Shown piece after piece: positions 1,773-15,888 of a stretch of 40,595 nucleotides of DNA (within the stretch, counting starts at the first letter, position 1; every line of letters begins with the position of its first letter). The notes under the pieces are model-generated. The model was not told where the DNA came from. It did no database searches and worked only from the letters and a program-made list of their open reading frames with translations. Source of the DNA: a virus (taxonomy: Duplodnaviria > Heunggongvirae > Uroviricota > Caudoviricetes); IMG/VR virus record IMGVR_UViG_2541047967_000005, positions 1 to 40,595 of that record; one strand, 5' to 3'. The translations under genes were made by a program, and so were the position numbers.

Positions 1773-2398
1773 ATAGCCAGCACCTTACTGGCAGTGACGT
1801 ACCGCGCGCGCCGGTCGTCGATGCCGTTCCGGCCACCATTGATAATCAGAGTTACACGTGCAATATCGCCGGTATACTTCATGCATCCTTTGCTGGCAAA
1901 GAACCACGCCGCGCTACGAGCCGCGTATTCGTCCTGCGCCAGCAGTTCAGGACTCTCCAGCAGGTCAACCTTAAGACCGTTTCCACAGTCACGATAGTTA
2001 TTCAAACCGGTAATCTGGATAAGTCCGCGACCACGGTAATTCCAGCCATCACCAGAGGCATTGTTACCCATGCGTTTGCTGTACACCAGATTTGCGATCG
2101 CGCGCTGGCGCTCGAGTGGCAATGGTGGCTCACCAGCACGGCGGCCCAGTGCGTTAGCCTGTCCCTGGGTGAGACGCCCAGCCCGAACGAAGTTAGCCAG
2201 TCCGGTGACGCTGTAGTTGAAATTTTCCTGCAACCGGTTGAAGCCACCAGACTCATGCCCGACCTGAGCAATAAACATTGCCTGATCTTCGGGTTTGCTG
2301 ATACCAAACTCTTTCATCGCAGAAGTTATATGCGAGAACCAGCGTGCGGCCAGCGCCTCGCTAATACCAGCAGCTCGCTGGAATTGTTTAATCTCCAT
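1769..2398 (-). CDS. Endolysin, glycoside hydrolase family 19 (chitinase-like lysozyme)
   Basis: Internal ATG (MEIKQF...) chosen over the long track ORF; GH19 signature NYRGRGLIQITGLNNY plus AAWFF motif; sits between holin-like and Rz genes. Confidence 0.8.
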   Translation of the reverse strand: MEIKQFQRAAGISEALAARWFSHITSAMKEFGISKPEDQAMFIAQVGHESGGFNRLQENFNYSVTGLANFVRAGRLTQGQANALGRRAGEPPLPLERQRAIANLVYSKRMGNNASGDGWNYRGRGLIQITGLNNYRDCGNGLKVDLLESPELLAQDEYAARSAAWFFASKGCMKYTGDIARVTLIINGGRNGIDDRRARYVTASKVLAI

Positions 2399-2696
2399 GT
2401 TTAGACCTCGATATTTTGAAAATATGAACAACGTTACCGCGTGTTTTAATAACCGCGGCAAGCATGACAGCGTTGATAATGACCTCAGATAAATCCACAG
2501 CCATTGGCGTGCGTAACCAGATTGCATAGACGACACGAACAGGAATACTTGCCGCAGCAACAATAAGGAAATAAGCAAGCCACCCTCCCCATCTTCGATG
2601 TTGAGAGCCGTTACGCCGGAATGTGACAACGCGAATTGCTATGCCAGTACAAATAACTGCATTGGTGATAAGCAAAAAAAACTCATGCGTTACCAT
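2388..2696 (-). CDS. Holin-like / antiholin-like small membrane protein
   Basis: 102 aa with 2-3 hydrophobic helices and charged C-terminus; RBS ggggag upstream; overlaps the endolysin start. Confidence 0.45.
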   Translation of the reverse strand: MVTHEFFLLITNAVICTGIAIRVVTFRRNGSQHRRWGGWLAYFLIVAAASIPVRVVYAIWLRTPMAVDLSEVIINAVMLAAVIKTRGNVVHIFKISRSKHGD

Positions 2697-3087
2697 CGTC
2701 TTTTCTCCCCGGAATTAACTCGCGTGGATTATCGGAACGGTGATAGAGCCAGATGCCAATACGCACGGCGACAATTGCTGACACGAATGCGCCTGCAGAG
2801 AAAACAATCCCTTTTTCAAAAGAGTCCTGCGTGATGGTAGGGATCAGGCTGGCTATGCCGATAAGAATTGATGCTGCTGGTTTGTAAAAGAGAAGGCCGC
2901 AAAGAAAGCTGAGCATCGACAGGAGCACCCGGCGACGGATGGGGTACTCTACTGCAGAGGTAACAAAAATTACCGCCCCAGCCAAAGCCCCTAAAGCAAC
3001 CTCCGGAGGGACACCTGCAATAACCGCAGCAAGAGAACTAACACTAAGCCACTGATTTGAAGTTTCATTGGTTAGTTGGAATGACAT
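2683..3087 (-). CDS. Putative holin (multi-pass membrane protein)
   Basis: 134 aa, 3-4 predicted TM helices, immediately upstream of the holin-like and endolysin genes on the same strand. Confidence 0.45.
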   Translation of the reverse strand: MSFQLTNETSNQWLSVSSLAAVIAGVPPEVALGALAGAVIFVTSAVEYPIRRRVLLSMLSFLCGLLFYKPAASILIGIASLIPTITQDSFEKGIVFSAGAFVSAIVAVRIGIWLYHRSDNPRELIPGRKDDGNA

Positions 3088-3159: not shown

Positions 3160-5622
3160 TCAATTCCCTGTTAATTGCAAAACTTGCTCTTCCAGCTTTT
3201 TAACCCTGCGTCTCATCATCGCAGATTCCAGAATCAGAGCCTCTTCATAACGGATACCGTAACATTCACCAGCCTCGACGGCTTCGCGTACCAGAACCTT
3301 TGTCTGTATAAGTGGGTAAACTCCTGCAGAATGCTCTTCTTCCGTCACATCCCTGTATTCTGCCGGGGTCTCATTCCACTTGTCATAACAGATAAATGCC
3401 AGTCGTGACACATCTATGCCTTCATTCTGAAATACACTGATAACATGCTGCGCAACTGCACCAAAGTGCCATCTTGCTCCGTCTTTACCTTTCACTTCGA
3501 TCCTGTCAAGGTACTGGTATGAAACCCATTCCACTCTTTCCCATGCGTCCAGTATTTTCTCATCAATAACCTCTGGAGCAGTCTTGAAACGCGCATCGGA
3601 CAGCACCGTAAACGCTGACTGGGTAAATCCCCCCGACCATGCACGACCAGCCAACCCAAGAGAATAAGTATTCGTTGTCGATGGTGTCATGGCTGAATCA
3701 GAAAACTGTATATATTCTGAATTTCCAGTAGATATTCGAATATTTCCATTTATTAGCGACATAGTGCCTTTAGTATTATCACTATTGAATAATTTCAATT
3801 GCGAACTTATACCGCCTCCCACAGCCAGAGATACATCGCCTTCAGCAAGCATTCTGAATTTATCTGCAGAAACAAGCGTCTGGTTAGCAAGGTTAAAATA
3901 TTTAACCCACCATTCAAAACGCCCTGACATAGTCCCAACGTACTGACCAAGCGCAGGGACGTGAACAACATTGCTATTTGTAGTGCCGTCTATACTGGAA
4001 ATACCAGTCACCGCTGATGCAGAACTCAGAATATTATTTCTGTCACCCGGATGTTTAATTTCAACAAAGTTCCTGATACACCCTTCCTCGAAGGTAACCA
4101 CGCCGGAAGAACTATACATGGGGAATATTGACGCATAATTACTGCGTGCAGCATCTAAGAAACGAATGGTTGTAGATGCCTGCAGATCTCCTGATTCATT
4201 TTTCCCATCACACCCAGTCATTAGAATATTACTGGCAATATTATTATTTCCCTGAACGGTGACGCCGTGCGCCTGCTTTGCGTCCGATTCAGAGTAATCA
4301 ACCAGCACATCCGAAATCAGGTTACCAGTCCCCTTGCCAACAACTACTGCGGCGTATTTTGGGTTGTTAGCCATTACACTGCTAATGATATTATTCGTTG
4401 GGGCAGTTTCCGTCTCAGTTCCATTGTAAACAACGTGCTGACACTCTTCACCAATAACATTGCTGACAATGTTATATTTTGCTGCTGTTTTAAGTTCCAC
4501 TGCACCAAACTGAGGATAATTTCTGGCTATCACACCATCAATTAGCGTATTTTGCGATGAATCAAAAAGCACACAACCTGCTTTTTTATTATTTGCGAAC
4601 CCTAAATACTCTCCTCTTATATCTCTAACAATGTAACCTGACGGAATACCATTATCCGGATAAGCGATCAAGCTAAATCCTGGTCCTCGCGTATTTGTAA
4701 ATCTGATATTTTTAACCGATACATCATGGCCACCTGAAAATGACACCTGGTGTCCCTGCACACTATCATCTGATTTATTTCCCATAATTGTTAGCGTACT
4801 AAGCATGCCACCATCGGGCATGTTAAAAACCAGATGATTACCATCTCTGTCATACTGTTTTATCGTTCCCCCACCTGTTCCGTACAAGCCACAACGTGAA
4901 AGAGAAACTAAAGATGTATTGAATACCCCTTCCGGAACAAAAACACTGCTAAACGAATGTAATGATTTTGTAAAAGCATCCTTGTTATCATTTAAGATTC
5001 CATTTTGAGCTCCAAAATCCTTAATGCTGACACCATCACGCATCTTATCCTGGAACGTTCTGTATACCGCTCCAGAACCATACTGAATAAACCAACCAAA
5101 ACCACCAATAACTCCGGCGATTGCAGCATCGACATAATTACGCATTGAGCGATTATTTACAGCGTCCTGCTCAAGTGATGGATCGGCAAGGTTAGATATT
5201 CTGTTTTGCTTTGCATCGTAATATTTTGCAAGCAAAGATGGTTTCATCAATGCACGTCTGAACCACCCAAAACATCGCTGGATCAGCATCGTCAGGTAGT
5301 CAAATGCATCCTCATGAACTTCGGGGAAAAATTTTCCCTGATTGCGAAGATCAGTCTCCTGCACCACATCAAGCACACGCTCTATCGTGATTCGCCAGCC
5401 AGCAGCAAGCGGCGACGGAAGAACCACTGCACCGCCACTATAAGTTCCCGCCCCTGTTACCGTATAACCAGCATCCAGCACTAGTTTTGTAACGTTACCG
5501 TTAAGGTCAGACACCTGAACAACCAGGTCGGATTTTTTGAAAATACGGAAGGTATACGGAAATGATGTCGTAACGCCGTTACCTGTGTATTCGTTGTGGT
5601 CAACTTCGGTTGAGACCGTCAT
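3160..5622 (-). CDS. Tailspike / tail fiber with T7 gp17-like N-terminal anchor, central beta-helix domain and C-terminal S74 intramolecular chaperone
   Basis: N-terminus (YTGNGVTTSFPYTF ... RISNLADPSLEQDAV) resembles T7-type tail fiber N-domains; C-terminal ~146 aa (SDARFKTAPEVIDEKILDAWERV ... HFGAVAQHV ... coiled-coil tail) matches the endosialidase-chaperone S74 pattern; RBS ggag upstream. Confidence 0.8.
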   Translation of the reverse strand: MTVSTEVDHNEYTGNGVTTSFPYTFRIFKKSDLVVQVSDLNGNVTKLVLDAGYTVTGAGTYSGGAVVLPSPLAAGWRITIERVLDVVQETDLRNQGKFFPEVHEDAFDYLTMLIQRCFGWFRRALMKPSLLAKYYDAKQNRISNLADPSLEQDAVNNRSMRNYVDAAIAGVIGGFGWFIQYGSGAVYRTFQDKMRDGVSIKDFGAQNGILNDNKDAFTKSLHSFSSVFVPEGVFNTSLVSLSRCGLYGTGGGTIKQYDRDGNHLVFNMPDGGMLSTLTIMGNKSDDSVQGHQVSFSGGHDVSVKNIRFTNTRGPGFSLIAYPDNGIPSGYIVRDIRGEYLGFANNKKAGCVLFDSSQNTLIDGVIARNYPQFGAVELKTAAKYNIVSNVIGEECQHVVYNGTETETAPTNNIISSVMANNPKYAAVVVGKGTGNLISDVLVDYSESDAKQAHGVTVQGNNNIASNILMTGCDGKNESGDLQASTTIRFLDAARSNYASIFPMYSSSGVVTFEEGCIRNFVEIKHPGDRNNILSSASAVTGISSIDGTTNSNVVHVPALGQYVGTMSGRFEWWVKYFNLANQTLVSADKFRMLAEGDVSLAVGGGISSQLKLFNSDNTKGTMSLINGNIRISTGNSEYIQFSDSAMTPSTTNTYSLGLAGRAWSGGFTQSAFTVLSDARFKTAPEVIDEKILDAWERVEWVSYQYLDRIEVKGKDGARWHFGAVAQHVISVFQNEGIDVSRLAFICYDKWNETPAEYRDVTEEEHSAGVYPLIQTKVLVREAVEAGECYGIRYEEALILESAMMRRRVKKLEEQVLQLTGN

Positions 5623-6076: not shown

Positions 6077-6212
6077 GATTTGAAATTACCAATAGGAGTG
6101 CTTATATTTACCTTTGCAGTAAATTTACATCGCACTCCTCTTGTGCCATAGTAATCGGGCACTGGCAAAATCCAGTGCCGGGATTGGCGTCCCGGGTTAC
6201 TAAGTGGCGCAT

Positions 6213-6235
6213 ACCACGCCAGACGTGGTTTTTTT
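6213..6235 (+). terminator. Rho-independent terminator inside the Bro1 leader
   Basis: ccacg ccaga cgtgg followed by seven T; a matching hairpin plus T-run sits at the mirrored position upstream of Bro2. Confidence 0.6.
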
Positions 6236-6391
6236 ATGCGTTAAGCACAGCTATATCCGAATTATGGTGGGCTGGGCAGGGGTCCGAAAGGACGCCGGTA
6301 CCACTTAGGCCGGTACGCCAACCTTGTCCAGTTCACCACCAGTAATTGGCGTTGCGGTGGTGATTAAAATCACTAAGTGGAGATAACCACC

Positions 6392-7102
6392 ATGGCTAAT
6401 GCTCAAACTGCCATCTTCAAATTTGAATCTGTTAACCCTATCCGTTCCATCATTATCGATGGCCAACCATGGTTTGTAGCCCAAGACGTTTGTAGTGCGC
6501 TGCGTATCCAAAACGTCACCCAAGCACTTGAAAAACTGGATGATGATGAAAGGTCTATGTTCAACATAGGGCATGAACATCGTGCAATTTTTGACAGCCG
6601 AGTAAAAGAGATCAACATTATCTCCGAGTCAGGCCTCTACACACTGATCCTCCGCTGCCGCGACGCAGTGACACCAGGCACTATCCCCTACCGCTTTCGT
6701 AAATGGGTTACAGGTGAGGTTCTTCCTCAGATCCGCCGCACCGGAAGTTACATTAAAAACTCGCTCCCGCAGGAAGAACGCATAAAGATGGTTGCCGACC
6801 AGGTAGCCAACGCCACGGCGTCAGCAGTAATGCAGGCGATGAAGATAGAGAACAAAACCTACAGCGCCCCACTGAAGCCCGGCTACCGCAGCCTGATTCA
6901 TTCGCCGTCTGGTGTTCTCGGCCTGACGGAGAACTCACTGCTGATGAATCTGCTGAACCAGTTACAGGAAGACGGGCACGATGTATCGGGCGCGGCGGCG
7001 GAGCTGACCACCATGTTCTGCTACATCGTCGGTGTGAGCAAATGCCTGCGTGATATCCAGACCCACGCGGAGTACATCAACGACAAAGCAGGATTCTTCT
7101 GA
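6392..7102 (+). CDS. Bro-N domain anti-repressor-like protein (paralogue 1)
   Basis: RBS ggag 9 nt upstream of ATG 6392; Bro-N pattern (IFKFESVNPIRSIIIDGQPWFVAQDVCSAL); C-terminal 158 aa identical to the 8373-9059 product. Confidence 0.75.
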   Translation: MANAQTAIFKFESVNPIRSIIIDGQPWFVAQDVCSALRIQNVTQALEKLDDDERSMFNIGHEHRAIFDSRVKEINIISESGLYTLILRCRDAVTPGTIPYRFRKWVTGEVLPQIRRTGSYIKNSLPQEERIKMVADQVANATASAVMQAMKIENKTYSAPLKPGYRSLIHSPSGVLGLTENSLLMNLLNQLQEDGHDVSGAAAELTTMFCYIVGVSKCLRDIQTHAEYINDKAGFF

Positions 7103-7174
7103 CGGGCGGCGGCACAGGGATGTGCCTTTAAATAATTCTGTACAGATTGCAGACCGGGGGTGAATAGCGTACTA

Positions 7175-7189
7175 TTACCTTAAAGGTAA
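7175..7189. promoter_or_regulatory. Operator-like palindrome TTACC-N5-GGTAA upstream of the cargo cassette
   Basis: ttaccttaaaggtaa, about 45 nt upstream of the 7232 start. Confidence 0.5.
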
Positions 7190-7231
7190 ACCTGTTTTTA
7201 TTTTATACCTGTAACTTACCGGAGATTAAAG

Positions 7232-7558
7232 ATGACAAAACTTGGATTCGTGATGAGAGGTCCGGTAAGAAGCGGAACTCATGCAAAGCGTAGCAAGAGT
7301 CGTATTTTTACTGGTAAGGTTGTAGCACGTAAATCAGCTATTGGCTCGTTCAATAGTGAAAATGCGGCATTGCGCCATATTTTTATCAGCACAAAGCCAA
7401 GAGCATCCGCTGATGTGCATACAATGTCTATTCCTATCACAAAGAATATCAAGCGGATAAAAAAGCTCTCATCTGCAGAATCAAAAGAGATATCTTTCCG
7501 CCAGCTTAACTCATTAGAAACGCATATGAAGGAAGAGGAATTCGATGTTTTTGAGTGA
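7232..7558 (+). CDS. Basic 108-aa protein of unknown function; first gene of the low-GC two-gene cassette (candidate antitoxin/immunity partner)
   Basis: RBS ggag 7 nt upstream; Lys/Arg-rich N-terminus, acidic C-terminus (EEEFDVFE); AT-rich with AGA codons; 3' end overlaps the next gene by 14 nt. Confidence 0.5.
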   Translation: MTKLGFVMRGPVRSGTHAKRSKSRIFTGKVVARKSAIGSFNSENAALRHIFISTKPRASADVHTMSIPITKNIKRIKKLSSAESKEISFRQLNSLETHMKEEEFDVFE

Positions 7559-8057
7559 GTATAGCGGGAAGGTTATACCTACTGGTGAGTTTAAAACTGA
7601 TGACTTTCTGATTTCGCTAAAAGATGCTTTTAAACAACACTGGCGTCATGGTCATCATCCTGATCTGGGAAAAGATACTCTTTTTGAAAGACCAGACGAA
7701 GTATTAGGCTTCCATCTCAGAAAGGTTCATGTCAATATTGGTGAATATGCATCATATTCATACTCATGTACTGAACAGTGTTGGGATGAGTGGTCATATG
7801 GATTGATTGATGAACAAGGAAATTACAGGCCAAAACCAACCAGTAACGCATATCTCATATATGCAGTCAATGAAATAAGAGATGCAGCCTTACTAGCTTA
7901 TTGGGACCCGCCCGCACACACCAAAGCTAACGCAAAAGTTTGGATGGATTCCGTATTGAATTTCACAAAATTATTTCATGAACGAACGAATACAGCTCCA
8001 CTTAGTAGAAATGTTTATCCGTGGGATTATTCGTACAAATCCAAAAAGCCTGCATAG
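7545..8057 (+). CDS. 170-aa protein of unknown function; second gene of the cassette (candidate toxin/effector, possibly YafO-like)
   Basis: Strong RBS ggaagagga upstream of ATG 7545; translationally coupled to the upstream ORF; low GC; motifs (LFERPDEVLGFHL ... AYLIYAV ... ALLAYWDPPAH) loosely recall YafO-family toxins from memory, not verified. Confidence 0.5.
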   Translation: MFLSEYSGKVIPTGEFKTDDFLISLKDAFKQHWRHGHHPDLGKDTLFERPDEVLGFHLRKVHVNIGEYASYSYSCTEQCWDEWSYGLIDEQGNYRPKPTSNAYLIYAVNEIRDAALLAYWDPPAHTKANAKVWMDSVLNFTKLFHERTNTAPLSRNVYPWDYSYKSKKPA

Positions 8058-8138
8058 TAGTTTTTTATGGACGAAACAAAAGTCAGTGCTACACTCATTG
8101 ACGCCACATTGAGGTGGCTTATAGATGGAAATTTCACA

Positions 8139-8300
8139 ATGAAAAAAGCATTTGCTGCACTGTTCGTTTTGTTGTCTCTGGTAGCTTCAACTCAGGCCTT
8201 TGCCGGTCGTTGTCAGCACGACAGCGACACTGCTGCTGACGGCTCCCGCTGCGGTGGGCGTTCTGCGGATTCCCGCCCTGGCGGCGGTGGCATTCGTTAA
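8139..8300 (+). CDS. Small secreted Cys/Gly/Arg-rich peptide (~53 aa precursor), unknown function
   Basis: Internal ATG followed by a signal peptide (MKKAFAALFVLLSLVASTQAFA) and ~31-aa mature part; weak RBS, so the call is tentative; the track ORF starts at 8067. Confidence 0.35.
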   Translation: MKKAFAALFVLLSLVASTQAFAGRCQHDSDTAADGSRCGGRSADSRPGGGGIR

Positions 8301-8306
8301 AAACAA

Positions 8307-8322
8307 GGCCGCGAAAGCGGCC
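8307..8322. terminator. Bidirectional hairpin terminator between the convergent cassette and Bro2
   Basis: ggccgc gaaa gcggcc (GNRA loop); A-run upstream on plus equals T-run on minus; terminates Bro2 on the minus strand. Confidence 0.55.
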
Positions 8323-8323
8323 T

Positions 8324-8335
8324 GTGACATGTCAC
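8324..8335. repeat. 12-bp palindrome GTGACATGTCAC (copy 1 of 3)
   Basis: Exact palindrome immediately next to the bidirectional terminator, in the unique segment between the inverted-repeat arms. Confidence 0.7.
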
Positions 8336-8372
8336 GATAGTTTCGTTTTGCACATCCCTGTGCCGCCGCCCG

Positions 8373-9059
8373 TCAGAAGAACCCTGCCTTGTCGTTGATG
8401 TACTCCGCGTGCGTCTGGATATCACGCAGGCATTTGCTCACACCAACGATGTAGCAGAACATGGTGGTCAGCTCCGCCGCCGCGCCCGATACATCGTGCC
8501 CGTCTTCCTGTAACTGGTTCAGCAGATTCATCAGCAGTGAGTTCTCCGTCAGGCCGAGAACACCCGACGGAGAATGAATCAGGCTGCGGTAGCCGGGCTT
8601 CAGTGGGGCACTGTAGGTTTTGTTCTCTATCTTCATCGCCTGCATTACTGCTGACGCCGTGGCGTTGGCTACCTGGTCGGCAACCATCTTTATGCGTTCT
8701 TCCTGCGGGAGCGAGTTTTTAATGTAACTTCCGGTGCGGCGGATCTGAGGAAGAACCTCACCCGTAACCCATTTACGAAAGCGGTAGGGGATAGTGCCTG
8801 GTGTCACCGCATCGCGGCAGCGGAGGATCAGTGTGTAGAGGCCTGACTCGTTGATAATATTGGTTTCGCCTTGACGGCCTAAGTTAAATTTAGCCCTTTC
8901 ATCATCATCAAGAGATTTTATTGACATAGTGGGGTTTGTCAGTTGAAGAGCTTTAATAACGTCTTTGGCAACAAACCAAGGATTTCCATCAATAACAATG
9001 GCTCGAATGGTTGCCTCTGATTCAAAATGAAAAACAGATGGGGTTACGTTAGCAGTCAT
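8373..9059 (-). CDS. Bro-N domain anti-repressor-like protein (paralogue 2)
   Basis: Internal ATG (MTANVTPSVFHFESE...) with RBS aggtga; Bro-N pattern (IDGNPWFVAKDVIKAL); C-terminal 158 aa identical to Bro1. Confidence 0.75.
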   Translation of the reverse strand: MTANVTPSVFHFESEATIRAIVIDGNPWFVAKDVIKALQLTNPTMSIKSLDDDERAKFNLGRQGETNIINESGLYTLILRCRDAVTPGTIPYRFRKWVTGEVLPQIRRTGSYIKNSLPQEERIKMVADQVANATASAVMQAMKIENKTYSAPLKPGYRSLIHSPSGVLGLTENSLLMNLLNQLQEDGHDVSGAAAELTTMFCYIVGVSKCLRDIQTHAEYINDKAGFF

Positions 9060-9325
9060 AGTGATCACCTTTGTAGTTAGGTTAATCACCACTACCGACG
9101 CCAATCGGTTGGTGGTGAACTGTGCAGGGTTGGCGTAACCGGCTACAAAGGACCCGGCGCACCTTTCGGTGCCCCCACACAGCCCACCATAGAATAGGTG
9201 CGCTTTACACATAAAAAAACCGCTTATGCGGCATATGTGCCTCTGTAGTAACCCAGGACGCCAATCCCGGCACTGGATTTTGCCAGTGCCTGATTACTAT
9301 GGCACAAGAGGAGTGCGATGTAAAT

Positions 9326-9340
9326 TTACCGAAAAGGTAA
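9326..9340. promoter_or_regulatory. Operator-like palindrome TTACC-N5-GGTAA upstream of the Bro2 leader
   Basis: ttaccgaaaaggtaa; the mirrored site in the left arm (6108-6122, ttacctttgcagtaa) has one mismatch. Confidence 0.5.
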
Positions 9341-9487
9341 TGATAAACGCTAAGAAATATTAAAATCAACCATATTTGGTTAATGCGTATAAAAGAGCCA
9401 GCAGCGAGAAATTGTGCCGCGACGTAAAATAACGAGCATCTGCTGGCTTACAACCAGCGATGTTTCAAATTTGTCACTATTATCAAC

Positions 9488-9841
9488 GTGCCATTCCACG
9501 GCGCAGAACTTTATGTTGTCAATCACAACGGAGAACCGTACACCCCAATGAAACCTATCGTTGAAGGCATGGGTATGGATTGGGCTTCACAGTTTACGAA
9601 AATGAAGCAGCGGTTTAAAACCTGCATTGTGAAAATCACAATGCAGCTTCCTGGGGATGAACAGCGCCGTGAGATTATTTGTTTGGCACTTCGCAAACTT
9701 GCTGGCTGGTTGCAAACCATCAGCCCTAACAAAGTCCGCCCTGAAATCCGCGAAAGTATTGAAACATCAACCGTGTCGATATCGACACGGTTGATTATGA
9801 CGGTAACTTATTGCCGTGTGTCCTATTTCTCCCACCACTAA
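9488..9841 (+). pseudogene. Remnant of a P22 Ant-type anti-repressor (N-terminal domain only)
   Basis: GTG start with no RBS; FHGAELYVVNHNGEPYTPMKPIVEGMGMDW ... LRKLAGWLQTISPNKVRPEIRE resembles the Ant N-terminal domain, then degenerates and stops after ~117 codons; no C-terminal domain in any frame. Confidence 0.45.
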
Positions 9842-10138
9842 CTAATTATATTTGTCTTTAAAAATCTCATGGAATGATTGAGAGTAAGACTTTCCATACT
9901 TCAAATAACATTCTTCATCCAACTTTCTTAATGAACTTCGAACCTGTTCGTGGCATACAGCAAAAAAAACAAGTCCGCCGCCTATTAATACCCCTATTGA
10001 TATTGGGTTCGCAACATCCCATAAAAAATCGGCTAACAGAGCAAATACCCCACCGCCGCCAATAAATGCCCCTATAGCTCGGTTCGTTTTAGCTTGCTCA
10101 TAGCGTCTCTCTAACTCACTAAACTCTTTAATATCCAT
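9842..10138 (-). CDS. Small two-TM membrane protein; candidate superinfection-exclusion protein at a sieA-like position
   Basis: RBS agaggtg upstream of ATG; two Gly-rich hydrophobic segments; AT-rich; directly downstream of the ejection-protein genes and upstream of the anti-repressor region. Confidence 0.4.
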   Translation of the reverse strand: MDIKEFSELERRYEQAKTNRAIGAFIGGGGVFALLADFLWDVANPISIGVLIGGGLVFFAVCHEQVRSSLRKLDEECYLKYGKSYSQSFHEIFKDKYN

Positions 10139-10156
10139 ATAAGCACCTCTATAAAA

Positions 10157-13100
10157 TTACTTCATCACCGGATCCACCTGGTTTATTAGTGGCGCAATCC
10201 AGAACAGGTTATTGCCGGGTATCAGGGTTCGGACATTATGCACAATACGATCACCGGCATCACCATTCAACACTCCTGAGGTCACATCAATGATGCTATC
10301 CGCAAGACCAAATGACGGTCCGAATAGAGATCCTACGAATCCACGACTGGCATACCTGGACTGTGTGCCAGTGCCAAATAAAGCCCCCAGCCCAACAGCA
10401 CCACCAGTCGCCTTTTCAGCCATGTTGTTATATTCCATCAATGGCCCAAGAATACCGGATCTATCTATACCCTCAAGCACCAGCTTCTCTGGTGACCAGT
10501 CAACATTTTTCCCTTTCGATGCTTCTTTAAGCGCATAGACCAGTGAGCCAAGAGCAATCTGAAATGCAGTGCCATAATAAAATTGCGCAGTTCCTTCCTG
10601 TAACCCACCAAGTAGCGCACGGTTGTATGAAGCCGTTGTGAATGATTTAAACTGAAATATCGTTCGCCCCATTGGAGTACTCGCCCATAAAGGTGTGTCA
10701 CCAATACCGGGGGTGATGATAGTGTTATTAACGTCTTTCAGAACCGCTGACTGGAATACTCCGGCAACGTACTGATCGTCCCATTTATCAAAGTTACCAA
10801 TGTGCCATCCATCAATTACCTCACCATGTTTCTCGAACTCACTGCGAATACGCGCAGCCATATTGTCGTTGATACCGAGTTTTGCCAGGCGGCGTGCAGG
10901 AAATGCACCGGACAAAATACCGTCTGAAATAACCATTCCGTTCATGGATTTGTTTATGTCATTAAAGCGATCCATGAGTGTCAGCTTGCCGAAGGCATCA
11001 GTAATTCGCTCCATTCCGGCTTCGACTGCTGTTGTCCTGGAAGAGCTGTCAACAAGATCACCAATTGCACGAGAGCGTGAATGCAGTACAGTTTCCAGTC
11101 CGATACCCATCTTCAACATCTCTTCTTTGCTGGCCTTAAATGCCGGTGATTGGGATATCTGAGAAGCATAGCCTTTCATGGTGTTACGGAAACCATTAAC
11201 CATAACCCCTCTGGCCAGATCTGGAATAGCTGATACTGTCATTCCACCGAGTTTGGTCGTGAAGTTCACATCCCGCAGAAAAGCGCCAGCACGAACAAAA
11301 AACGAAGACGGATCATCAGGCATCCCATATGTACCAACAAGACGATCGCGTAATGCTGTTATGTCTCTGAGATCATTTGCTCTTGATTTTGAAAGTCTGG
11401 ACTGTTCTTTCCGTAATTCCTTTTCGTACTTTCGCATTAATGAATCGAGTTTACCCTGAGGAACAACTTCACCATTGCTCTCATAACGTGCTTTCAGATT
11501 TGCCACACTTTCGTCATATTTCGCCTTTATTTTTTCAGGCACTTCCCGTAACAGACTGTCATATTCGTCCTCAATTAATTGCAGACGCTCAGTCATAGTT
11601 CGTTTGCCAAATGTTCTCGTCAACTCAATTTCTGCTGCCGCTTCACGGATATGACGTTGCAGCACGTAATTCACATCACTTTCAAGATAATCCCTGATAA
11701 GACTATCAGGAACATTTAATGTTCTTTCTTTCGTACTACCTGCGGCTTTTACAGAAAATACGCTGACAAAATCCTGTGGAACCTTAGCACCAGTAATTTT
11801 ATTAATTACGATATCTGCTGCAATTTCAGCATCCTCAGGAACCAGTGTTTTATTTCCTCTCGACCACCAGTCAACCAAAATACGTCGAAATTTATCGCGT
11901 TCACTGATTATTTTTCCAACTTTATATATGCGTGGGAAATAGCTTGCCTGGCCTAATGCTTTCAGTTCTTCATCTGGCGGCAATAAACCAAGCTTTTGCA
12001 TTTCAACTTTCACCCGATTTAATACAGTTCGCATCGCCTGCGCCGTTTCCTGAACAACAGGATTAGCATGCACATCACCGCTTCGCATAGCATTCCCAAC
12101 CTGCTGACGAAATGAATCAAAACTCATGTCACCACCATCAGCTTTATACTTTGCGTATGCCTGTTTATTTCCGACAACAACAGCAGCTTCTTCACGCTGC
12201 CATCCACGTGTACGGGTTTCTACAGCTACCGGTGTTTCAATCCCCCTTTCATTTCCTTTAAGGGTGAAATTATTTTCGGCTAACTCCAGCGTTGTTTTTC
12301 GCACCGTCTTGGACGGAGACTCCATTAACCTTGTCAAAGGAGTAAGATAGCTCCCTGCTTTCCATGCAGCCTTTCCACCCCACCCACCGGAAACAGGGGT
12401 TAAATCATCCAGAGTCGCTGTATCAATTTTCATAGCACCAACACTACCACCATCGGAAAGCGAAGCGGCAGCCCTGTCAGTCGCTGATGTAATGCTCATA
12501 TTATCAAGAGCATCAGCAACCTCACGTGTGGCTGCAGCCCGGACGGATGGCGAAAGCGCAACACCAGCACTGGCAAACACGCCGCTCATCATCGCACCCG
12601 CTGCAACGTGAGCGGCACTTTCACCCCATGAGCGTGTTATTTGCTGATTATTCAGTACAACCTCGCTTAATGCTGTACCGGCAGCACCAATCGCAATCTG
12701 TGAGCCAATACGCGCCAGTGCCCCTCCTTGAGCACCTGGGATAAACATTGACGCAACAGTAACCGGGTCAAAAAGCATCGCTGTTGCACTGGCAATTCCA
12801 CCAGCTAAGCCTGCTTCAGAGATAAAACGCCGATCTTCATTTTCATCATCTATCTGCTGCTTAATCCACGCCGTTTCCTCTGGCGATCGGGAATCTGCAA
12901 ATTTCGCCCCCCAGTATTCATAACCGTGCAACTCATTTTTATCAGCATATGGGTTATAACCCTCGACCGGTTCAAACTGTCTGGCAGGACGGAAAAAACC
13001 AGCCAGAATATTGTTCTGTCGTATTGCTGCGGCAAGCAATGAAGGCTCTTTGGGACGAGGTTCAGGGTTCTTACCTTCTGGCGGATGCACATCAAAACTC

Positions 13101-13180
13101 TGTTCATCAGGTTCAGGAATGGCGAGACCAGCAGAAATAAATCCGTTATTGTTTGATTCAGATACAGGATAGAACGGCAT
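10157..13180 (-). CDS. Large internal virion / DNA-ejection protein (1007 aa)
   Basis: Last and largest of three consecutive internal-protein genes of a podovirus-type structural operon; RBS gaggat upstream. Confidence 0.55.
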   Translation of the reverse strand: MPFYPVSESNNNGFISAGLAIPEPDEQSFDVHPPEGKNPEPRPKEPSLLAAAIRQNNILAGFFRPARQFEPVEGYNPYADKNELHGYEYWGAKFADSRSPEETAWIKQQIDDENEDRRFISEAGLAGGIASATAMLFDPVTVASMFIPGAQGGALARIGSQIAIGAAGTALSEVVLNNQQITRSWGESAAHVAAGAMMSGVFASAGVALSPSVRAAATREVADALDNMSITSATDRAAASLSDGGSVGAMKIDTATLDDLTPVSGGWGGKAAWKAGSYLTPLTRLMESPSKTVRKTTLELAENNFTLKGNERGIETPVAVETRTRGWQREEAAVVVGNKQAYAKYKADGGDMSFDSFRQQVGNAMRSGDVHANPVVQETAQAMRTVLNRVKVEMQKLGLLPPDEELKALGQASYFPRIYKVGKIISERDKFRRILVDWWSRGNKTLVPEDAEIAADIVINKITGAKVPQDFVSVFSVKAAGSTKERTLNVPDSLIRDYLESDVNYVLQRHIREAAAEIELTRTFGKRTMTERLQLIEDEYDSLLREVPEKIKAKYDESVANLKARYESNGEVVPQGKLDSLMRKYEKELRKEQSRLSKSRANDLRDITALRDRLVGTYGMPDDPSSFFVRAGAFLRDVNFTTKLGGMTVSAIPDLARGVMVNGFRNTMKGYASQISQSPAFKASKEEMLKMGIGLETVLHSRSRAIGDLVDSSSRTTAVEAGMERITDAFGKLTLMDRFNDINKSMNGMVISDGILSGAFPARRLAKLGINDNMAARIRSEFEKHGEVIDGWHIGNFDKWDDQYVAGVFQSAVLKDVNNTIITPGIGDTPLWASTPMGRTIFQFKSFTTASYNRALLGGLQEGTAQFYYGTAFQIALGSLVYALKEASKGKNVDWSPEKLVLEGIDRSGILGPLMEYNNMAEKATGGAVGLGALFGTGTQSRYASRGFVGSLFGPSFGLADSIIDVTSGVLNGDAGDRIVHNVRTLIPGNNLFWIAPLINQVDPVMK

Positions 13181-13191
13181 TATTTAGATCC

Positions 13192-15888
13192 TCACGAAAA
13201 GTAATCTTTAAATTTGTCCATACGTTCGTTATGCAGGCGCTGATACTGCTCATCCAGAGCGCGATGCTTGTCTTTGAAGTTTCGTATAGCCTGTCCACGC
13301 ATAATTTCTTCCTGCTCGTGCTGCTCCCGTTCCTGCTGCATTTTCTTATAAGGTTCCCAATCTTCTAGTGATGGCCCCCAGCGCATCTGTCTTCCATGCT
13401 TGTCATAAAATAAATCATCCCTCGTAATACCATTTTTATCTTTTGTTCTGATCACAACTGAATAAAGCTTATCTCTCGGAGTTGATAAGTCAGGAACGAG
13501 AATCAACTCACCTCCAACCAGTGAGCGTGGCTTATTCAGTCCCAATGCACCAGCCTCAGTTGAAGGTCGGTTAAATGAAGGAGCCGGTTTATGTAAGTCA
13601 TCGCCATACATGATTTTTTCTTTTTCAGCCTTCCATTGCGCTGCAATCCAGCCTGACGGCCCATATTGATAAAGCGCCTCCGGTGCATATTTCATAAACT
13701 GTGCTTCCCCGTTGACCTCGCTGATACTCCAGGTGCGGGCTATCTGCTGGTTGGTCATTTGCTTCGCTACGTCAGCGTTACCACCAGCAAGGCGATAGTT
13801 AACGTCATACAGCATCTGATAGTCATTGCGAAAGAGCGCTGCTTCCGGCGTCTGGTCATCCGCAGACGGATCCCAGCGAAGCCAATGAGCCATATTGCTG
13901 ACAGCAGAATTGGCTGCGCTGTCACGCTCTTTTTTGTATTCTCTTGTACTCTGAACAGATGAGAGCTGCGCCCTTAGTGCATCTGTCTGGTTGTATGTCT
14001 TACTCTGCGCTTCCACAATAGCAGCATCAGAAGACATCCCTGCATCAGTTAGTTGCTTAACAGTCAGATAAAAACCCTGCATATCCTTCGGCATATTTCC
14101 AATAGATGCATTGTCTGTTTCATATAACCGACTAAACAGTTCCGCCGCATTTTTAACCACTTCCTGATTGCTGGATCGGGATACTGCTGAAAGCTGCGTG
14201 ATGACCTGCGAAGGCATTATGCCAGTCTGAGCCACAAGCCGAACAACCCCATCATGAGTGGAGGCATCATTAATACGAAAGTTCTGCGCCATTTCTGTGT
14301 AATCAGCAGCTTTCTGCATTGACTTGTTGCTTGGGTCTAATTTTTCACCTATTGTCAGCGCCTCATTGAATCTGCGTGAATCCCGTTGCGCCTGAATTGC
14401 TTCATTTGATCTCTGAAGCAATGCAGACAATTTTCCGTAAGCATCGAGTTTTAACGCATAGTGAGGATCGTTAACCTCAGGCTTCACTTTCTGCATTTCT
14501 TCTTGCTGCTGAGAAGGAGGCAAATACTGAATTGCCTGGAATATTCTCGCGTTATCAATCGCTATATCCAGTTGATTGATTATTTTATCTGCGTTTTTTC
14601 CATACCCCCTGATGATGGTCTCCTGAGCCGGTATATAATCTGGAACCTCACCGTTATATAGCTGGGCCATGGTGTTATTAATAGCTGGCTCAAGCTGTTC
14701 TAATATTAACTTCCTTTGCTTTTCTATCTGACTATTAGCAAGGTTATCTATTTGATAAATAGTCAGCGGATCCATTCCAGTTTTATTTTTTCTATATCGG
14801 GAAAGCCACCCTTGTGTTTCTGATGGAAGATTTCGGATAAATTCTTCTTCTGATATTTCACCTTTACGTGGATCACCGACTTTGGCGATCAGTTTATCCA
14901 CGTTACCCATCCCCCAGTTATATGCTGCTCCGGTCAATATTTCGGAACCGTACTTACCATACAGTTGATTTACATAGTCACTGGCGAGCATTTCATGCTG
15001 TTGTTCGTCCGTAGGGTTGTATTCAACGCCACGTTTGGCCGCCAGTTCTTTCCCTGTGCCCGGCATTAACTGGTATTTCCCCTGGGCCCTCTCTCCAGAA
15101 GATGTTTTCGGTCCTTCAAGAATACTACCATCAGGATTAAAATGACGATCACCTGATTCAACAAGGCGTATGGCACGCATGTCCATGCCTCCAGAATCAT
15201 TTTTCTGAAACTGACCATTTAACCATCCTTCCGGATTAGCAGCGGCATAATTCTTCGCCCGCATTTCTGTGGCACTGCGATCATCACTTTCTATTTCTTC
15301 CAGAATGCGTTCTTGTGACCATCCCCTGGCTGCTCCATATCTGGCAATGGCTACCATTCTGGAATTTCTGGCTAAAGTGGCAGTTTGCGGGTCATTCCAG
15401 GCATCCGCTTCATTTTGTATCCATAATTTTCTCGTTGCCTGATATTGCTCATCTTCATAGGCATTTGTCTGCCCTATCTCATGTCTGAGAACTCCAGTAC
15501 TGAACTGAATTTTCTGTGTTCTGGCTTGTTGCAAAAACATATTTCTTGCTGCTTCATCAGTCAATGAAGCAGCTATTTCTTCCACATCCTGATCAAATCC
15601 AGATATGTACTCTTGCCCCTTACCAATCGCATTTTTGCCTTGTTGTGCATAAAAACCGGTTTGAGGGTTATAAAGACGTTCATTGCTGCGCTGATTAAGC
15701 TGAAGGATGGCATCCTGAGACAATGCAACATTCGCTTTCTGCCTGGCTTCACCATATGCCACCGCATACTGATCTGCGACATTCGCCAGCACCTGACCTG
15801 CTTGAGGAACATCGAAGGTTTGAAAACCACCGGTTTGCACACCACGACTTTGCACCTGGCGTCCGGATGTAGTAGGAACAACAGGCAT
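13192..15888 (-). CDS. Internal virion protein with lytic transglycosylase (SLT) domain (898 aa)
   Basis: SLT motifs in residues ~225-330: catalytic-type VESG, GKYQLMPGTGKELA, AYNWGMGNV. Confidence 0.7.
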   Translation of the reverse strand: MPVVPTTSGRQVQSRGVQTGGFQTFDVPQAGQVLANVADQYAVAYGEARQKANVALSQDAILQLNQRSNERLYNPQTGFYAQQGKNAIGKGQEYISGFDQDVEEIAASLTDEAARNMFLQQARTQKIQFSTGVLRHEIGQTNAYEDEQYQATRKLWIQNEADAWNDPQTATLARNSRMVAIARYGAARGWSQERILEEIESDDRSATEMRAKNYAAANPEGWLNGQFQKNDSGGMDMRAIRLVESGDRHFNPDGSILEGPKTSSGERAQGKYQLMPGTGKELAAKRGVEYNPTDEQQHEMLASDYVNQLYGKYGSEILTGAAYNWGMGNVDKLIAKVGDPRKGEISEEEFIRNLPSETQGWLSRYRKNKTGMDPLTIYQIDNLANSQIEKQRKLILEQLEPAINNTMAQLYNGEVPDYIPAQETIIRGYGKNADKIINQLDIAIDNARIFQAIQYLPPSQQQEEMQKVKPEVNDPHYALKLDAYGKLSALLQRSNEAIQAQRDSRRFNEALTIGEKLDPSNKSMQKAADYTEMAQNFRINDASTHDGVVRLVAQTGIMPSQVITQLSAVSRSSNQEVVKNAAELFSRLYETDNASIGNMPKDMQGFYLTVKQLTDAGMSSDAAIVEAQSKTYNQTDALRAQLSSVQSTREYKKERDSAANSAVSNMAHWLRWDPSADDQTPEAALFRNDYQMLYDVNYRLAGGNADVAKQMTNQQIARTWSISEVNGEAQFMKYAPEALYQYGPSGWIAAQWKAEKEKIMYGDDLHKPAPSFNRPSTEAGALGLNKPRSLVGGELILVPDLSTPRDKLYSVVIRTKDKNGITRDDLFYDKHGRQMRWGPSLEDWEPYKKMQQEREQHEQEEIMRGQAIRNFKDKHRALDEQYQRLHNERMDKFKDYFS

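Follow-up and report, generated by a model that had tools for sequence, protein, structure and literature searches.

A small membrane-protein gene behind internal virion protein D of an epsilon15-like prophage and its candidate role in superinfection exclusion

What might a small membrane protein do when its gene lies directly behind that of a protein involved in DNA delivery? The question is raised by a 98-codon open reading frame (ORF) at positions 9842..10138 of a 40,595-nucleotide stretch of viral DNA (IMG/VR record IMGVR_UViG_2541047967_000005), and "the window" here means that whole stretch. A first-pass annotation had noted the sieA-like position of this gene and proposed that its product excludes superinfecting phages or blocks their injection. 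To our knowledge, the passage of T7/epsilon15-type ejection proteins and the opening of the inner membrane are still poorly defined, and we know of no exclusion protein that targets this type of ejectosome.

The gene and its genomic setting

The window is an epsilon15/phiV10/TL-2011b-like podovirus prophage, and in related E. coli genomes the prophage of this type adjoins pdeF-yfgGHI. The ORF starts with ATG and lies on the minus strand, which had been left unstated. [quoted passage not shown] The latter is a homologue of epsilon15 gp17 and T7 gp16; the 3' end of its gene is 99% identical to the corresponding TL-2011b gene, and the protein has Gly-rich hydrophobic stretches at its C-terminus. 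IVP-D homologues at related loci also align with epsilon15 gp17, itself identified as an IVP-D (T7 gp16) homologue (PMC4819975). On the other side, a truncated P22_AR_N antirepressor gene (9488..9841, plus strand), annotated as a pseudogene by RefSeq in related genomes, is convergent with the ORF and abuts its stop codon, and Bro-N antirepressor genes lie beyond it. The map order is thus IVP-D, 98-aa ORF, antirepressor region and tailspike gene (3160..5622). The location first described, between ejection-protein genes (phrog_342, SLT, gp14) and an antirepressor region (P22_AR_N, Bro-N), is therefore correct. Two holin genes (PF16931, PF05449) are found at 2388..3087, about 7 kb from the ORF and upstream of the region where a GH19 endolysin is annotated in related genomes.

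A Shine-Dalgarno sequence, GAGGTG (10144..10149, minus strand), is located 5 nt 5' of the ATG, within the 18-nt gap between the IVP-D stop codon (10157..10159) and the ORF start. The bases directly 5' of the ATG read AGAGGTGCTTAT, and the strong ribosome-binding site had been rightly called. At 38.4%, the GC content of the ORF is below that of the window (48.5%) and of both upstream virion genes (45-46%), and its GC3 is 33% against 38-40%; the AT bias remarked on earlier is therefore real but modest.

The encoded protein has a RefSeq accession (WP_001555166.1, "hypothetical protein"), and at least 1000 E. coli contigs encode the identical 98-aa sequence, which every source names hypothetical. 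The alleles of the window, of the UTME prophages and of ST131 differ by seven synonymous and no non-synonymous changes, and comparison with a Citrobacter homologue gave a dN/dS of about 0.13, at saturated dS. The ORF is thus a genuine, uncharacterised gene kept by purifying selection. On the plus strand, a run of eight A residues at 9961-9968 falls inside it, as T8 in the codons for LVFFAV, and the database variants P0003, P0005 and P0006 look frameshifted around this run; another variant, P0002, has lost 26 residues in frame between the two IGxxIGGG repeats. Since the ORF is intact in all 38 complete E. coli genomes that have it, these four variants may be sequencing errors or cases of rare decay.

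Downstream of the gene, 46 nt past its stop codon, lies a 28-nt palindrome with a 13-bp stem (9768..9795, minus strand; folding z-score -3.1). It is probably the terminator of the late/IVP transcription unit, with a weak U-tract (UGUUUCAAUACUUU). Clear terminator hairpins follow the family gene at three related loci (L005, L007 and L009), and terminators are also present behind the genes that occupy the same slot in epsilon15 and phiV10. The 98-aa gene is the last of the internal-virion-protein transcription unit, directly behind IVP-D. The shared strand and the spacing of only 1-22 nt between IVP-D and the family gene suggest late co-transcription, possibly with translational coupling. Promoter scans of the window and of four homologous loci gave nothing consistent, in scans too insensitive to recover their controls. 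The coding strand of the 3-kb IVP-D gene gave no sigma-70-like site anywhere along its length; as the same scan also missed the known promoters of HK97 gene 15 and P22 sieA, this result says little either way. In the IVP-D region (window 10100-13300), one sigma-70-like site was counted over both strands, against 5.8 +/- 2.4 in shuffled sequence, a deficit that may stem from selection against promoters inside the late operon.

The antirepressor region has features of its own. In the truncated P22_AR_N gene (9488-9841), the domain match stops near residue 92, and the frame continues across the palindrome to within one base of the 98-aa ORF's stop codon, where it ends. As this junction is common to the UTME and ST131 prophages, a single ancestral recombination is suggested. 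The Bro-N genes at 6377..7102 (plus strand) and 8373..9212 (minus strand) together make up an inverted repeat of 518 nt with 97% complementarity (arms 6608-7125 and 8350-8867), flanked by an outer inverted pair of 106 nt (6097-6202 and 9246-9351). The repeats enclose a 1.2-kb AT-rich segment, and this layout over 6097-9351 could permit inversion or hairpin formation. Between the repeats, a 170-aa ORF (7545..8057), overlapped and preceded by a 108-aa ORF (7232..7558), gave a sub-threshold match to the YafO toxin (PF13957, E = 9.5e-4; 19.7 bits, the cutoff being 25), and in the related UTME-9 prophage a toxin of the YafO family appears in the RefSeq annotation. At window 8067-8300 and in a distant Serratia-type T7-like prophage (L029 8649-8813), at both places between the IVP-D and tailspike genes, lies the gene of a small secreted protein; its conserved pattern is a signal peptide and then ...CQH..DTA.DGSRCGGRSADSRPGG, and its counterpart in related genomes is the RefSeq hypothetical protein WP_000708858.1.

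A replaceable cassette site behind IVP-D

Synteny was examined in prophages of Citrobacter, Serratia, Cronobacter and Proteus-type hosts, in those of E. coli ST131 and on 13 IMG/VR contigs. In more than 20 contexts from six genera, the family gene lies behind an IVP-D homologue, on the same strand and 1-22 nt downstream. The sole exception is ST131, in which a gene for a 282-aa signal-peptide protein intervenes; even there, 51 nt from the 3' end of a window-type IVP-D gene persist beside the small gene as a remnant. Indeed, the window has in common with ST131-type prophages a whole cassette (9720..10207, minus strand), which comprises 69 nt of upstream sequence including that remnant, the ORF, the hairpin and the truncated ant stub, at 98-100% identity. 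The small proteins of the window and of ST131 are identical, whereas their IVP-D proteins are only 40-46% identical.

The gene is also present or absent among close relatives. It was found in 38 of 5426 complete E. coli genomes, 34 of which have the ST131-type cassette. The same IVP-D 3' end occurs in 46 E. coli genomes, and the ORF follows it in four of them (all UTME) and is absent from the other 42. The 98-aa gene is also missing from phage TL-2011b, whose IVP-D 3' end is 99% identical, and homology of the TL-2011b type ends at window 10163, four nt upstream of the IVP-D stop codon; among the matches listed, the homology of the ORF-less genomes with the same IVP-D 3' end stops at that same position. 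Horizontal acquisition, which had first been suggested by base composition, is thus borne out by a cassette that is nearly identical in prophages with divergent IVP-D and missing from 42/46 genomes.

A similar exchange was observed in Proteus-type prophages. Two loci (L009 and L031) have DNA identities of 90-100% on both flanks and of 25-57% across the slot; the last 250 residues of their IVP-D proteins are 100% identical, while the small proteins are 25% identical. Over 55 pairs, the identity of the small proteins was uncorrelated with that of IVP-D (Spearman 0.17, p = 0.21). The slot behind IVP-D is therefore a hypervariable, replaceable cassette site. The identity of its alleles is decoupled from that of IVP-D, a pattern expected of conflict or accessory genes. 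An obligate partner or chaperone of IVP-D should co-vary with it and occur in sister phages, which weakens that explanation of the linkage; with no co-variation and a gene dispensable in sister phages, an obligate structural partner of IVP-D was rejected.

The protein family, its predicted topology and other occupants of the slot

By profile comparison, the 98-aa protein belongs to phrog_21905 (E = 1.2e-67, residues 1-98 of a 98-position profile) and to no characterised family. All 19 aligned relatives match the same profile, whose members have about 100 aa, are functionally uncharacterised and are always named "hypothetical protein". An exhaustive HMMER search of 1.84 billion representatives returned 26 cluster representatives at E<=1e-3, mostly of 98-112 aa. 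Members occur in prophages of Escherichia, Citrobacter, Salmonella, Serratia, Cronobacter and Proteus, and the family has so far been seen only in prophages and viral metagenome contigs. A tblastn search with three members against 50,697 phage genome records gave no match, nor did a related-locus search in a collection with one genome per species. The ORF had no match in Pfam or NCBIfam, and no Pfam Gly-zipper family was listed at E<=1 for any phrog_21905 member. PADLOC was also silent on the ORF, but this means little because it misses P22 SieA as well. A profile search of PDB sequences with the family gave chance-level matches only (E>=0.12). Literature searches with the accession of the protein, and on epsilon15 gp18, phiV10 and Uetakevirus exclusion, found nothing on the slot behind IVP-D.

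The description of the product as a small two-helix membrane protein stands. Two Kyte-Doolittle peaks (1.7 and 2.4), split by WDVANP, mark a hydrophobic stretch at residues 21-62. The topology prediction that had been proposed was run: the N-tail holds 5 Lys and Arg residues and the C-tail 7, with none in the loop, and a two-helix hairpin with both termini in the cytoplasm (N-in/C-in) is therefore predicted. AlphaFold2 gave a poor model with 3 sequences (pLDDT 59) and a usable one with the 19-sequence alignment (pLDDT 79), in which helices span residues 3-40 (a cytoplasmic helix and TM1), 45-81 (TM2 and a cytoplasmic helix) and 89-97 (a short helix). The model suggests a membrane hairpin whose cytoplasmic extensions would form a small bundle. 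The predicted periplasmic loop has only about 6 residues, so any contact with an ejectosome would be made inside the membrane or on its cytoplasmic side. Foldseek matches in PDB and BFVD (PACSIN, AcrA, heads of alpha-pore-forming toxins) were generic helical hairpins, none at E<=0.001, and were dismissed as uninformative.

In the 19-sequence alignment, K83, Y85 and S88 are invariant, L73 is near-invariant, and D74 and C77 are conserved. These residues belong to a motif, LD..C..(Y/F)GK.Y..S..I, and the strongest conservation of phrog_21905 would thus sit in the predicted cytoplasmic C-tail. As for the Gly-rich helices noted earlier, the GGG of helix 2 is indeed conserved (13-17 of the 19 members), whereas the glycine run of helix 1 is not a feature of the family.

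Other phages carry other small genes at this place. Epsilon15 gp18 (64 aa, phrog 29212; L008 19326-19520) and phiV10 p21 (46 aa, phrog 7892; L022 5346-5486) are two-helix membrane proteins whose genes, like the 98-aa gene, lie on the IVP-D strand, 0-9 nt behind IVP-D, and are followed by a terminator. Beyond this terminator come a convergent small gene or an antirepressor gene and then the tailspike gene. Neither protein has detectable similarity to the 98-aa protein (they fall in different PHROGs, and hhalign against gp18 was negative), and both are shorter and do not have the conserved cytoplasmic tail of phrog_21905. Because epsilon15 and phiV10 have such unrelated proteins there, small membrane proteins behind IVP-D appear to be general in Uetakevirus-type phages. 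The further occupants also are envelope-directed, with signal peptides or membrane helices, and are all uncharacterised: the 282-aa signal-peptide protein of an ST131-type prophage (phrog_6118; L002 12496-13344), a 103-aa signal-peptide protein whose gene overlaps the stop codon of the family gene (L031 8288-8602), and a 99-aa multi-helix membrane protein (phrog_3075; L029 8293-8613).

In TL-2011b and the two ORF-less prophages that were inspected, the slot holds instead a convergent gene for a 175-187-aa protein of unknown function, of phrog_8033 or phrog_21690 (TL-2011b AEW24592 at L003 8420-8983; L015 3446-3973; L016 3420-3983). The orientation of these genes is sieA-like. AEW24592 has an N-terminal membrane helix and a weak TIR-like PADLOC match (ThsB, E = 0.005); a SieA-like nature of this protein was rejected after comparison with SieA.

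Candidate functions of the 98-aa protein

The comparison with P22 sieA, from which the exclusion proposal had come, shows both likeness and difference. Both genes come from temperate podoviruses, where they sit past the last ejection-protein gene and ahead of the antirepressor/tailspike region. SieA, like the predicted 98-aa product, is an integral inner-membrane protein without a signal peptide, and the best-conserved motif of the 98-aa protein is predicted to be cytoplasmic, as it is in SieA (PMC10883804). SieA uses this membrane-bound position to block ejection-protein function, escape mutations arise in gp16 and gp20, and the gene is patchy among related phages (22/66), with sequence types less than 30% identical (PMC10883804). 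The two proteins are however not homologous (BLASTP E = 7.7, hhalign probability 0.3%): SieA falls in phrog_7745, its motif FxRYPxEAxxFNK is absent from the 98-aa protein, and it has 162-164 aa and 3-4 helices instead of 98 aa and 2 helices (PMC10883804). Moreover, P22 sieA is convergent to gene 16, on the opposite strand, and has its own annotated promoter, whereas the 98-aa gene is co-oriented with IVP-D and 18 nt behind it; the ejectosomes also differ in type, being IVP-B/C/D of T7/epsilon15 in the window and gp7/20/16 in P22. The position called sieA-like thus holds for map order and does not extend to orientation.

HK97 gp15 offers another comparison. Its gene shares with the 98-aa gene a place among virion genes on the late-operon strand, a terminator behind it, a GC content unlike that of its neighbours and a patchy distribution, and its product too is a small inner-membrane protein (PMC3594210); the entry block that it confers depends on the DNA-delivery proteins of the incoming phage (PMC3594210). 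In contrast, HK97 gp15 has 62 aa, belongs to a siphovirus tail operon and has a demonstrated function from the prophage; the two are not homologous (hhalign probability 0.65%). Morons have been defined by a GC content unlike their surroundings, by presence or absence among relatives, by their own terminator and by their own promoter active in the repressed prophage (PMC3594210). For the 98-aa gene we found a GC of 38.4% against 45-46%, an absence from 42/46 genomes and, 46 nt downstream, the 13-bp stem with its weak U-tract. T4 Imm (83 aa), annotated as a small membrane protein that prevents superinfecting DNA from reaching the cytoplasm, is an early gene product of a lytic myovirus and also has no homology to the 98-aa protein (hhalign probability 2.3%).

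Taken together, the cassette behaviour, the decoupling from IVP-D and the conserved motif of the putative cytoplasmic tail lend partial support to the exclusion reading, which is plausible, with the sieA analogy extending to map order only. We tentatively propose as the best-fitting candidate that the 98-aa protein is a superinfection-exclusion (injection-blocking) factor at the inner membrane, a possibility that we place first, at well short of an even chance, because an accessory, fast-swapping membrane product tied to a DNA-delivery gene in temperate elements is the documented pattern of exclusion genes. The accessory inner-membrane protein would act against incoming T7/epsilon15-type ejectosomes. 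Its hairpin might anchor the conserved cytoplasmic bundle (L73, D74, C77, K83, Y85, S88) at the membrane, where the bundle could bind either a conserved feature of the ejectosome exit (on IVP-D or IVP-C) or a host factor required by the ejectosome; such binding would stop DNA translocation by related phages. The linkage to IVP-D would then mirror that of sieA beside P22 gene 16; the T5 llp and cor genes sit beside receptor-binding genes. The function would resemble that of P22 SieA, HK97 gp15 and T4 Imm without sequence kinship. Against this proposal, epsilon15-type lysogens already exclude their kin via O-antigen modification, according to annotations, and the IVP-D strand and 1-22 nt spacing suggest late co-transcription rather than expression from the prophage.

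A bolder version, which we regard as rather doubtful, is that the slot behind IVP-D is a dedicated, fast-swapping locus for small membrane proteins in temperate epsilon15/T7-type podoviruses, and that phrog_21905 would be the first known exclusion factor against a T7-type (gp14/15/16) ejectosome, with the K83/Y85/S88 bundle plugging or mis-assembling the channel exit. In that case, escape mutants would chart the cytoplasmic face of the ejectosome.

The same transcriptional arrangement might instead point to a protein co-translated with IVP-D as an accessory subunit of the virion or ejectosome, or as an IVP-D chaperone. Such a protein could be packaged and ejected, helping to build the inner-membrane channel, or be retained in the producer cell, shielding the Gly-rich C-terminus of IVP-D from the membrane. 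The gene is the next one after IVP-D, on its strand and 1-22 nt away, with its own Shine-Dalgarno sequence inside the IVP unit and before the terminator, and Gly-rich hydrophobic segments occur both in its product and in the IVP-D C-terminus. We nevertheless find this improbable: of the 46 E. coli prophages with this IVP-D 3' end, 42 do not have the gene, nor does TL-2011b; IVP-D C-termini at 100% identity are found with alleles at only 25%, and an allele at 100% identity with IVP-D proteins at 40-46%; and a two-helix hairpin this small should enter the membrane of the producer rather than capsids.

A late-expressed protein of lysis timing, either class II holin-like or an antiholin, is comparably unlikely. 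A small size, two helices in N-in/C-in orientation, a charged C-tail and a place in a late transcription unit would suit it, and this class II holin topology is a generic feature. Moreover, the Serratia-type gene just precedes a small-terminase-like gene, as the T7 holin gene 17.5 immediately precedes the small-terminase gene 18. Holins are highly diverse in sequence. None of the 19 phrog_21905 members matches a Pfam holin family at E<=1, and T7 gp17.5 has no similarity to the 98-aa protein (hhalign probability 0.6%). The ORF does not lie beside an endolysin gene, as a holin gene might; the window has two holins of its own (PF16931, PF05449), about 7 kb away, and other prophages have their own holin-lysozyme cassettes. 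The gene is also missing from sister phages, and so strongly conserved a cytoplasmic motif is unusual in holin tails.

Least likely is that the protein inhibits, in the inner membrane, an envelope enzyme of the host, for example one for O-antigen polymerisation, ligation or acetylation, and would thereby change the receptor of tailspike phages in a way comparable to epsilon15 gp22, D3 Iap and Gnarl. Epsilon15 does encode a small two-helix inhibitor of the alpha-polymerase, and all family members are in prophages of tailspike-bearing phages. Small phage accessory proteins that are not enzymes can alter O-antigen, possibly masking receptors on post-lysis debris, which gives this explanation a precedent (PMC12373910). 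The gene is however linked to IVP-D, whereas the conversion genes gtrABC, oac and wzy lie beyond the tailspike gene, and the 98-aa protein has no similarity to any annotated conversion protein. Its conserved part is cytoplasmic, by prediction, and common to several genera, although the host genera of the family have very different O-antigens.

To conclude, our results support the notion that a small, exchangeable membrane-protein gene occupies a slot directly behind IVP-D in epsilon15-type prophages, and tentatively favor superinfection exclusion as its function. If this function holds, the protein would be a non-homologous newcomer among known exclusion systems. A blocker of this kind would provide a small, easily expressed genetic handle on the ejection step, with escape mutations mappable in IVP-C or IVP-D, and it would explain part of the phage resistance of lineages that have the gene, which is present on at least 1000 E. 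coli contigs. If the protein is instead a helper of lysis or assembly, the finding would be an ordinary one. Either way, our study documents a hypervariable accessory slot beside IVP-D.
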